From Promethearchaeota archaeon (GTDB taxonomy: Archaea; Asgardarchaeota; Odinarchaeia; Odinarchaeales; JBHLKK01): a stretch of 14,469 nucleotides of DNA. Positions 937 to 10,831 of the stretch are shown one piece after another. Where the stretch lies: positions 1 through 14,469 of the forward strand of contig JBHLPL010000045.1 of assembly GCA_048939465.1 (NCBI GenBank), written 5' to 3'. The position numbers were made by a program, and so were the translations under genes. Under the pieces are notes generated by a model, which was not told the DNA's origin, ran no database searches, and worked only from the letters and a program-made list of their open reading frames with translations. The first letter of the stretch is position 1, and each line of letters begins with the position of its first letter.

Positions 937-1392
937 TTACCTTCCGTATGTCGCCATCGCCTCTCCATACTGCAGAATATGGCCTTCCATTGCCTTTTCT
1001 AATTCCTTCTTTGACGATCCTGCCGGTAAGTCAAGACGTATGTCCAAACCATGGACCTTGAAGAAGTACCTGTGTGGTTTTCCTCTGGGAGGACACGGTC
1101 CGCCGTATCCTGGCCTACCAAAACTACTTCTTCCTTGGGTTGCTTTGATCGGCTTTGAAATCTCATTTCCTCTTGGAATCCCTTCAGGTATTGAGTCGGT
1201 TGGCTCGATATTCCATATCACCCAATGATTGAATGTACCCATGGGTGCATCAGGATCATCACATATAATGGCAACGGACTTCGCATTCAATCCTTGAATC
1301 TCTATTCTTGGAGATATGTCTTCTCCATCGCAGGTGTATTTCCTGGGGAATTGAGTGAACTCAAGCCTAACATCAAGCTTCTCCACTCTCAT
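937..1392 (-). CDS. YbhB/YbcL family Raf kinase inhibitor-like (PEBP) protein, 151 aa
   Basis: Motifs DDPDAP, FNHWVIWNI, GYGGPCPP, HRYFFKVHGLD. Start moved from the ORF-track position 1467 (inside the mini-element) to ATG 1392, which has GGAGGAGG just upstream. Confidence 0.92.
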   Translation of the reverse strand: MRVEKLDVRLEFTQFPRKYTCDGEDISPRIEIQGLNAKSVAIICDDPDAPMGTFNHWVIWNIEPTDSIPEGIPRGNEISKPIKATQGRSSFGRPGYGGPCPPRGKPHRYFFKVHGLDIRLDLPAGSSKKELEKAMEGHILQYGEAMATYGR

Positions 1393-1426: not shown

Positions 1427-1563
1427 GTGAACAGCCCCACCCTTTCAGACGGGGTTTCCTGTTTCATCCATTCCCAACGGGATATATCTGATAGGCCCTA
1501 CGTGCATTTCCTGCCCCGCAGTTTTTTGCTTGTGAATTGGCGAGTGTTACCTCGACTGAATAC
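1427..1563 (-). ncRNA. Putative TnpB reRNA/omegaRNA-like scaffold inside mini-element 1
   Basis: The internal TATA-like TTTAAATA (1594-1587) predicts a start near 1563. The body contains GGGGCAGGAAATGCACGTAGGGCCTAT...GAAACAGGAAACCCC, which resembles the 3' non-coding tail of tnpB elements. The 5' end is estimated, not observed. Confidence 0.45.
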
Positions 1564-1649
1564 CATATGCCTTTCGCAAAAACGAGTATTTAAATTCCTC
1601 GCAATTCATCTCAACCCTTTCGGATGGGGGCTTATTGCTGAGAAGACAT
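1427..1649 (-). mobile_element. Non-autonomous IS200/IS605-family (tnpB-type) mini-element, 223 bp, no transposase or TnpB ORF
   Basis: Minus strand reads TTGAT (1654-1650, TAM-like) | ATGTCTTCTCAGCAATAAGCCCCCATCC-GAAA-GGGTTGAGATGAATTGC (left-end hairpin) ... GATGAAACAGGAAACCCCGTCT-GAAA-GGGTGGGGCTGTTCAC (right-end hairpin and TTCAC terminus). No target-site duplication, as expected for this family. The left boundary is inferred from the TAM. Confidence 0.8.
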
Positions 1650-1748: not shown

Positions 1749-1883
1749 CTATTTCTTCCATTGTGTTTCATAGTTTTCGTGCCCGCACTTGGGACATTTA
1801 CACCATTTAAGCCCGTATGGTGTATTCTTGATAGCAATCTCTTTCAGATCTTTGACTGGGTGACCACAGTTAGGACATTTCAT
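1749..1883 (-). CDS. Small double-CPxCG zinc-finger protein, 44 aa (MKCPNCGHPVKDLKEIAIKNTPYGLKWCKCPKCGHENYETQWKK)
   Basis: Translated by hand; below the ORF-track length cutoff. ATG 1883, TAG 1751-1749. Two KCPxCGH knuckles. TATA-like TTTTTATA about 50 nt upstream. Confidence 0.85.
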   Translation of the reverse strand: MKCPNCGHPVKDLKEIAIKNTPYGLKWCKCPKCGHENYETQWKK

Positions 1884-2019: not shown

Positions 2020-2439
2020 TTATTCTTCTTTTATTTTCTTGATTTCCTCTTCTTCTTTCATTTTTTTGATTTCTTCAGACAGGACTGATAACTGTTTTTC
2101 AAGAATTTCTTTCTGTCCCTCTAAAAGCTCTATCTTTTCTTCCTTGGAAACTGCCTGTGGAGCGACGAAGGGGACAATTGTTCCATACGGCATTGTTGCA
2201 GGGTAAAGTTGTGACGATGGATAAATTCTTAATGGGGGATAGAATGGTACCGGGCTGTAATAAGGATACCACATACCGAATCCTCTTCCGAATCCTCTTC
2301 CGAATCCTCTTCCGAATCCTCTTCCGAAATAGCCGAAATTCTTCGTGAAACCAGGCGTATCATATCCTGAGCAATAGCCTAAGCCTCTACCGGTCTTAGG
2401 TCCTAATCCTGCTGGTCCGGTTCTGTCTCCTCTTGGCAA
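2020..2439 (-). CDS. DUF5320-like protein (Gly/Arg-rich N-terminus, C-terminal coiled coil), 139 aa
   Basis: N-terminal MPRGDRTGPAGLGPKTGRGLGYCSGY is typical of this family. GRGF repeats, a Pro/Tyr-rich linker and an E/K/L heptad tail follow. TTG start with GGAGG 8 nt upstream. Confidence 0.85.
   Translation of the reverse strand: MPRGDRTGPAGLGPKTGRGLGYCSGYDTPGFTKNFGYFGRGFGRGFGRGFGRGFGMWYPYYSPVPFYPPLRIYPSSQLYPATMPYGTIVPFVAPQAVSKEEKIELLEGQKEILEKQLSVLSEEIKKMKEEEEIKKIKEE
2276..2328. repeat. Perfect 12-bp tandem repeat (CCGAATCCTCTT x4 plus CCGAA) encoding (GRGF)4
   Basis: Read directly from the sequence. The copies are identical, including synonymous positions. Confidence 0.97.
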
Positions 2440-10439: not shown

Positions 10440-10705
10440 GTGAACTACTCCCAGCTTTTGCAACGGGGTTCCTCCCTCTTCCCCGCATGAGTCTGAAGAC
10501 GCTTTGGCTTCAAAGAGGGGAGCTTTCTGTGCCCCGAATTCATAACTGAGCAGGAAGTAGTTGGTTTCTGGGCCGGTTCACTCTAGTTGTGCCACAGGCA
10601 CGGGACGGTTCTGTCAAGCAGGATATACGCGTAAGGCCTGCGCCCCCAGACTAGGTTTTGTTCTCATGCCGCTGACCAGCCTTCCTCTCGAAGAGAGCAT
10701 CTTAC
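10440..10705 (-). ncRNA. Putative structured guide-scaffold RNA (TnpB reRNA/omegaRNA-like) inside mini-element 2
   Basis: Internal TATA-like TTTAAAAG (10736-10729). Stems: CTCTC-TTC-GAGAG, GTGCC-TGT-GGCAC, CTTTG-AAGC-CAAAG and CCCTCTT/AAGAGGG. An internal GTGAAC (10581-10576) is complementary to the terminal GTTCAC. The 5' end is estimated. Confidence 0.5.
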
Positions 10706-10789
10706 CCAAACCTTAAATTACCAGAGGACTTTTAAACACGACTCAACTCGTCTCCTCCCTCTCGGACGGGGTCTTCCTGCGGAAAAGAG
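10440..10789 (-). mobile_element. Non-autonomous IS200/IS605-family mini-element, about 350 bp, no protein gene
   Basis: Minus strand reads TTTAT (10794-10790, TAM-like) | CTCTTTTCCGCAGGAAGACCCCGTCC-GAGA-GGGAGGAG (left-end hairpin) ... GAACCCCGTTGCAAAAGCTGGGAGTAGTTCAC (right end, TTCAC terminus at 10440). No target-site duplication. The interior is GC-richer than the flanking intergenic DNA and contains many hairpins. Confidence 0.8.
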
Positions 10790-10831
10790 ATAAAAGATAA
10801 TGAATCAACCTAGATGTGAGATGCTGGGAAA

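Follow-up and report, generated by a model that had tools for sequence, protein, structure and literature searches.

A family of gene-less IS200/IS605 elements in Asgard archaea that probably carry a standalone TnpB guide-RNA gene, and a decayed copy upstream of a PEBP gene

The element at 1427-1649 and its parts

The window, a 14,469-nt stretch of DNA from an Odinarchaeales genome, carries at 1427-1649 on the minus strand an ORF-less IS200/IS605 mini-element of about 220 bases (~221 nt), flanked by a small zinc-finger ORF on one side and a YbhB/YbcL (PEBP) gene on the other. An earlier note, made from the sequence alone, had described it as a mobilisable TnpB guide cassette. The question is whether the element can be such a cassette, what it derives from, and what it does at this locus now. 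Our analysis makes it highly probable that this copy is a decayed non-autonomous IS200/IS605 element (PATE) and that the family to which it belongs is a standalone TnpB guide-RNA gene.

All features listed in the earlier note (hairpins, TATA box, non-coding body and terminal GTTCAC) were found on the minus strand. Outside the left end lies a degenerate target-motif site (1648-1654), which can be read as TTGAT (1654-1650) or GATAT (1652-1648), the family motif being TTTAT. The left end (1610-1647), defined by alignments, consists of a leader, a putative TnpA DNA guide (1633-1630) and a subterminal GAAA hairpin (1629-1610) with two of its eight pairs broken. It is followed by a putative promoter (1587-1607) composed of a conserved GAATTGCG block, a purine-rich BRE-like stretch and the TATA box TTTAAATA (1594-1587), which is unmutated in this copy. 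Transcription is predicted to start at about 1563, giving an RNA body of 137 nt (1563-1427) that begins with a 30-nt hairpin, P1 (1534-1563). The omega-RNA core (1455-1520), assigned by its identity to the end of a tnpB element and by pair counts, contains hairpin P2 (1516-1502), whose loop forms a pseudoknot with 1434-1429, helix P3 (1495-1492 with 1461-1458), hairpin P4 (1486-1469) and the putative TnpA right-end guide (1458-1455). The right end (1427-1454) is common to all copies and parents and has a sharp boundary both in alignments and in empty sites; it comprises the right GAAA hairpin (1454-1435), three pairs of which are G-T, and the terminal motif GTTCAC (1432-1427; TTCAC at 1431-1427). 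The adjacent host flank (1411-1426), which begins with AAGCTT at 1426 and would provide the guide segment, matches its own locus only.

The two ends are related in direct orientation and have near-terminal palindromes without terminal inverted repeats. The only coding content is a frameshifted relic of the TnpB C-terminus, in one frame of the core. In a scan with Rfam covariance models, HEARO among them, the element had no match up to E=5.

The exact left boundary may lie anywhere within 1647-1649, an uncertainty of 2 nt. In favour of (C/T)TTAT as the original motif, and of 1647 as the boundary, is a congener in which the orthologous left flank has CTTAT followed by AAGC; simple parsimony, with the family consensus as reference, points slightly to 1649.

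Copies of the element, a tnpB parent and a TnpA helper

Searches with BLAST and nhmmer identified more than 12 full-length copies in the host genome (E-values of 1e-28 to 1e-49), 73-80% identical to copy 1427-1649. Altogether 14 copies in the genome, each about 225 nt long, are complete, with the left end, the TATA promoter, a structured RNA of about 137 nt and the right end; two or three more are partial. Further copies sharing these ends, for which the earlier note had proposed to search, therefore exist, and their similarity is far beyond chance. Both congeners have the family as well, and so do two further Asgard families; strong matches were found in 9 of 400 genomes of the phylum. Exact matches of the P1 hairpin pattern in the species-genome collection all fall into Asgard records (31 of 31), and none was found on viral contigs. 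A literature search yielded no paper on the 225-nt family in Asgard archaea, which is weak evidence.

Related left ends are numerous: about 90 occur genome-wide, in at least five classes, whereas near-complete tnpB genes number only three and tnpA is present once. One of the tnpB elements (contig C2, 25971-27281) is the parent candidate, consisting of TTTAT, a left end, a 383-aa tnpB and a right end; its product matches NF040570 with 359 bits and has the RuvC D/E/D motifs. The last 97 nt of copy 1427-1649 are identical to the end of this element at 82 positions (85%), and end motifs are common to the family, the C2 element and a tnpA-tnpB element on contig C105 of the same genome. Ends and scaffold are thus shared with an intact IS1341-type tnpB element, and the full-length tnpB-bearing parent that the earlier note had expected is represented in the same genome. 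TnpB proteins 69-83% identical, with the same 3' scaffold, were found in all five cassette-bearing genomes checked.

The sole assembled tnpA is that of contig C105 (L007:1150-1557; NF033573). Its HUH motif reads D-Y-F-H, as compared with D-H-F-H in an 86% identical orthologue and D-H-V-H in ISDra2 TnpA; the first histidine is replaced by tyrosine (codon TAT), and the protein is probably inactive. A search of two congeners with the C105 query found no tnpA, the assemblies searched being 78-91% complete (91% for the host assembly). Given this inactive-looking tnpA and the negative search of the congeners, the family is at most a candidate for present mobility.

Decay of copy 1427-1649

Copy 1427-1649 has the most broken scaffold pairs of the 40 copies compared: six are broken (two in P1, one in P2, two in the pseudoknot and one in P3), while 25 of the 40 copies break none. 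It scores 106 bits with a family model built without it, complete matches of other lineages reaching 125-149 bits; the 116-155 bits of its sisters in the genome come from copies that were in the training set. The fold z-score of its RNA part (-0.01) is the worst of the 40, and that of 1410-1649 is +0.68; the fold is not intact, and in single-sequence folding this copy did no better than shuffled sequences. Both TnpA guides are changed (AAGA to AAGC on the left, GAAG to GAAA on the right), the left hairpin has two mismatches, and the number of changes at conserved columns is the highest among 24 copies from the genus. Because the guides, the TAM, P1, P2, P3 and the pseudoknot are all mutated, copy 1427-1649 most likely neither moves nor guides. 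The description as a mobilisable guide cassette fits the family, which is ORF-less and has a cognate tnpB in trans, and is not supported for this copy, the most degraded of 40 in a genome whose only assembled TnpA has a mutated HUH motif.

The downstream PEBP gene and possible reuse of the promoter

The start codon of the PEBP gene (937-1392, minus strand; 151 aa; TIGR00481, 134.6 bits; PF01161) lies 34 nt past the element and in the same direction. A 176-aa frame of this gene that starts inside the element, at 1467, was taken as chance, as the ribosome-binding site and the relatives support the start at 1392.

A reading that is compatible with the decayed-PATE explanation, and that concerns the present role of the copy, is that the element's promoter replaced the native one, that its TATA box still fires and drives PEBP, and that the decayed scaffold forms a 5' leader of about 170 nt. 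We regard this as possible, though doubtful. Changes at conserved columns are absent from the promoter and spacer (0 of 27) and affect 20 of 124 columns in the left end and RNA (Fisher p=0.025); in four relatives the ribosome-binding site of PEBP is preceded, at a distance of 48-59 nt, by a TATA-like box, whose place is taken here by the right end of the element; and the orientation and the distance of 34 nt are suitable. The pattern comes, however, from one locus and was tested after the fact; AT-rich TATA-like words persist in the 34-nt flank, and read-through into PEBP from upstream genes on the same strand is possible. Across the genome, elements show no excess immediately upstream of genes on the same strand (10 of 55, versus 19% of intergenic motifs). 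A preference for insertion into host promoters, suggested by several TTTAT/AAA empty sites, was likewise dropped, as no enrichment was seen with crude gene calls.

The RNA scaffold and hairpin P1

The distance from the start of the TATA box to P1 is 28-33 nt (mode 31) in all 40 copies from three families. In archaea the spacing between TATA box and transcription start follows a rule, and the observed distance fits a start site at P1.

The family fold consists of the hairpins P1, P2 and P4, helix P3, the right hairpin and a pseudoknot in which the loop of P2 pairs with the bases that precede the guide. In model-aligned matches 96% of the cells are paired and 14 of 34 pairs are changed on both sides, a result not reached in any of 500 shuffles and beyond that of slid controls, with the limits that the alignment leans to the structure and that the shuffle control ignores relatedness. 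Seven of these 14 pairs belong to the hairpin of the right end, a structure that has a role at the DNA level too; in P2, P3 and the pseudoknot conservation outweighs covariation. The covariation in the body for which the earlier note had proposed to look is therefore present at the family level.

Hairpin P1 is absent from 12 cognate and six other tnpB loci, so an origin of P1 as leftover tnpB coding or leader sequence was rejected; about 40 nt at the 5' end of the RNA, P1 included, have no counterpart in any tnpB element examined. Wherever the sequence continues, P1 is followed by the core. As it is missing from the 12 tnpB elements and always precedes the core, P1 appears to be a module gained or kept by the cassettes and lacking in the parents. 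The earlier view is right for the family in that the cassettes have ends, a promoter and a guide scaffold; a simply gutted parent does not account for this 5' part.

Guides of the parent TnpB are cut from the tnpB mRNA, according to PMC10278001; on this ground we guess that P1 protects the 5' end or aids loading. A bolder proposal, to which we give a rather low probability, is that the cassette, rather than a gutted transposon, is an old dedicated guide-RNA gene in which P1, an added module, lets the separately transcribed RNA be stabilised or loaded into TnpB in trans. P1 would have spread over three Asgard families together with one TnpB clade, the ends being replaced by local ones; at the present locus the guide would have decayed and the promoter would have been kept for the host gene.

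Target motif and empty sites

The motif was counted at 77 left ends: it is TTTAT at 25, TTCAT at 17 and TTGAT at one, namely copy 1427-1649. The count took, near each end, the word most like TT(T/C)A(T/C) and is thereby biased to that motif; empty sites and anchored contexts agree with it. The family TAM, as read from these sites, is TTTAT/TTCAT and not TTGAT. The first base of the left guide covaries with position -3 of the TAM (A with T, G with C; Fisher p=0.004, related copies not being independent). Empty sites of sister copies in the congeners have TTTAT joined straight to the flank without duplication; by this comparison the family inserts 3' of TTTAT without duplicating its target. Of the insertion model in the earlier note, the lack of duplication is borne out on the sister copies, and the assignment of TTGAT as an ISDra2-type TAM is contradicted by the same empty sites.

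The clean TTGAT/AAGCTT junction that had been predicted at orthologous loci was not seen either. The element is absent there, and the congeners have instead about 860 extra bases, with a gene for a membrane protein of about 200 aa, between the zinc-finger ORF and PEBP. This gene lies on the opposite strand (L009:2100-2730 and L011), where the host genome has the element; TBLASTN found no homologue of its product in the host genome. A search of the JGI metagenomes with the exact flank pattern found no empty allele of copy 1427-1649; on the one contig with an identical protein the element is present and differs by a single substitution. In near relatives the genes upstream of PEBP are different ones, and the flank 1411-1426 aligns with the PEBP upstream region of relatives.

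These data bear on a reading close to that of the earlier note, in which copy 1427-1649 still moves and guides, with TTGAT as an ISDra2-like target motif. In one register TTGAT does directly precede the element, the TATA box, terminal motif and right hairpin are intact, and the score of 106 bits still places the copy in the family; yet the single occurrence of TTGAT among the left ends, the pseudoknot with two of six pairs broken, a fold z-score of about zero and the mutated HUH motif of TnpA speak against it. Furthermore, under the IS608 pairing rule the left guide AAGC fails to pair at two of three positions, both with TTGAT and with GATAT. We consider this reading improbable.

How intact copies may work

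For intact copies of the family we propose a cycle in which transcription, loading and cleavage are deduced from sequence features. A Y1 TnpA acting in trans would excise and insert the element via its end hairpins, using 4-nt DNA guides (AAGA for TTTAT and GAAG for TTCAC). Driven by the internal TATA box, an RNA would begin at P1 and extend across the pseudoknotted scaffold and on into the flank. A TnpB made elsewhere would load this RNA and cut the joint of TTTAT and flank left by excision, and repair of the cut joint would restore the element. The target of the guide would thus be the element's own empty site, a selfish rather than a defensive function.

It is very unlikely that the family is a mere internal deletion product of a tnpB element, with a body lacking RNA function and similarity due to recent common descent. 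Core-deleted IS605 elements are common (PMC3119063), and the last ~95 nt do come from the tnpB 3' end, with one frame still recognisable as a TnpB tail. However, comparison of the three Asgard families gives an identity of 84% for P1 and the core, versus 30-32% for the spacer, linker and right hairpin; the TATA-P1 spacing is fixed despite a variable distance between left end and TATA box; and no parent has P1.

Nor do we find it credible that the guides were domesticated to aim TnpB at host genes or viruses: one sister copy is indeed found with an intact scaffold at an orthologous site in three species (L035, L043 and L047; host C59 and two congeners), but the guides of the family copies are insertion flanks, the P1 pattern is absent from viral contigs, the flank guide 1411-1426 has no second target in the host genome (adjacent to TT(T/C)A(T/C), at most two mismatches), and no convincing second TAM-adjacent target was found there for the guide of any copy.

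Relation to known systems

The kind of element is already known, as PATEs with standalone omega-RNAs, and the family shows the testable features of PATEs together with those of omega-RNAs at the family level. What the present case adds is the cassette-only hairpin P1 and an unmutated promoter where relatives have a native PEBP promoter.

In the mechanism proposed for PATEs, TnpA in trans would move the element and TnpB in trans would protect it from loss (10.1101/2023.03.14.532601); intact copies of our family most likely behave in this way. The PATE-like ISGst elements of Geobacillus stearothermophilus (Meers et al., same source) resemble our family in having no protein gene, parent-like ends, an omega-RNA that needs TnpB and TnpA in trans, and a TAM and TEM with covarying DNA guides; the family described here differs by its archaeal TATA promoter and by a cassette-specific 5' hairpin found across host families, and this copy by its decay. 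PATEs of Haloquadratum walsbyi were defined as DNA elements, when their guide function had yet to be discovered (Dyall-Smith et al. 2011, PMC3119063). They likewise have near-terminal palindromes, neither terminal inverted repeats nor target duplication, a length too short for a transposase, divergent multi-copy families and terminal-only forms of about 50 bp alongside; here, by contrast, a scaffold and a cognate TnpB are identified.

Standalone omega-RNAs have been shown by experiment to act in trans (summarised in Altae-Tran et al. 2023, PMC10691335). Like our family, these OMEGA guides are mobilised guide-RNA genes without effector or transposase and have a compatible effector in the genome; trans activity is experimental there and predicted here. 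In the ISDra2 omega-RNA a pseudoknot adjacent to the guide forms the conserved core (Nakagawa et al. 2023, PMC10097598), and the two systems share the right-end scaffold, a guide taken from the 3' flank and a pseudoknot formed by the bases just before the guide. This likeness is one of features. The TAM is TTGAT in ISDra2 and TTTAT here, and the RNA comes there from the tnpB mRNA (PMC10278001) and here from a putative promoter of its own.

The family offers a natural test set: its standalone guide RNA of 137 nt has a predicted start, the matching TnpB has 383 aa, and TTTAT is the predicted TAM. With it one can test directly how a gene-less element borrows a nuclease that normally cuts its guide from its own mRNA. 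While copy 1427-1649 is itself a relic, hairpin P1 is the part most worth following up: if P1 were needed for loading in trans, it would mark a step from cis-acting transposon guides to separate guide genes and could serve as a 5' module in the design of guides. At the present locus a guide cassette may have become a host promoter.

Other cassettes and neighbouring ORFs

The left-end classes comprise single-hairpin forms of about 50 nt, the 225-nt family, a TTCAT family of about 295 nt whose 3' half matches the tnpB end of C70/C55, and families of about 315 and 350 nt for which no parent was found genome-wide. A second ORF-less IS200/IS605 cassette in the window (10440-10792, minus strand; ~350 nt) has TTTAT and the same end motifs and is one of about 12 copies of a different family; none of the tnpB loci analysed matches its structured body. 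Distant gene-less cassettes of another Asgard family (L060, L061, L064 and L068) score 53-65 bits and have a different 5' domain, and three of these four share the word CTGAGGT with P1.

At one orthologous site a family copy (L022, congener G001 C9), a shorter related element (L106, host C116) and, in the third species, an empty site were observed. The copy that occupies the same site in three species immediately precedes a palindrome and a T-run resembling a terminator.

Just upstream of the element, the small ORF at 1749-1883 (minus strand) encodes two CPxCG zinc knuckles and is conserved in both congeners. Further on, a 12-nt tandem repeat at 2276-2335 codes for GFGR units within a Gly/Arg-rich ORF of 139 aa (2020-2439, minus strand).
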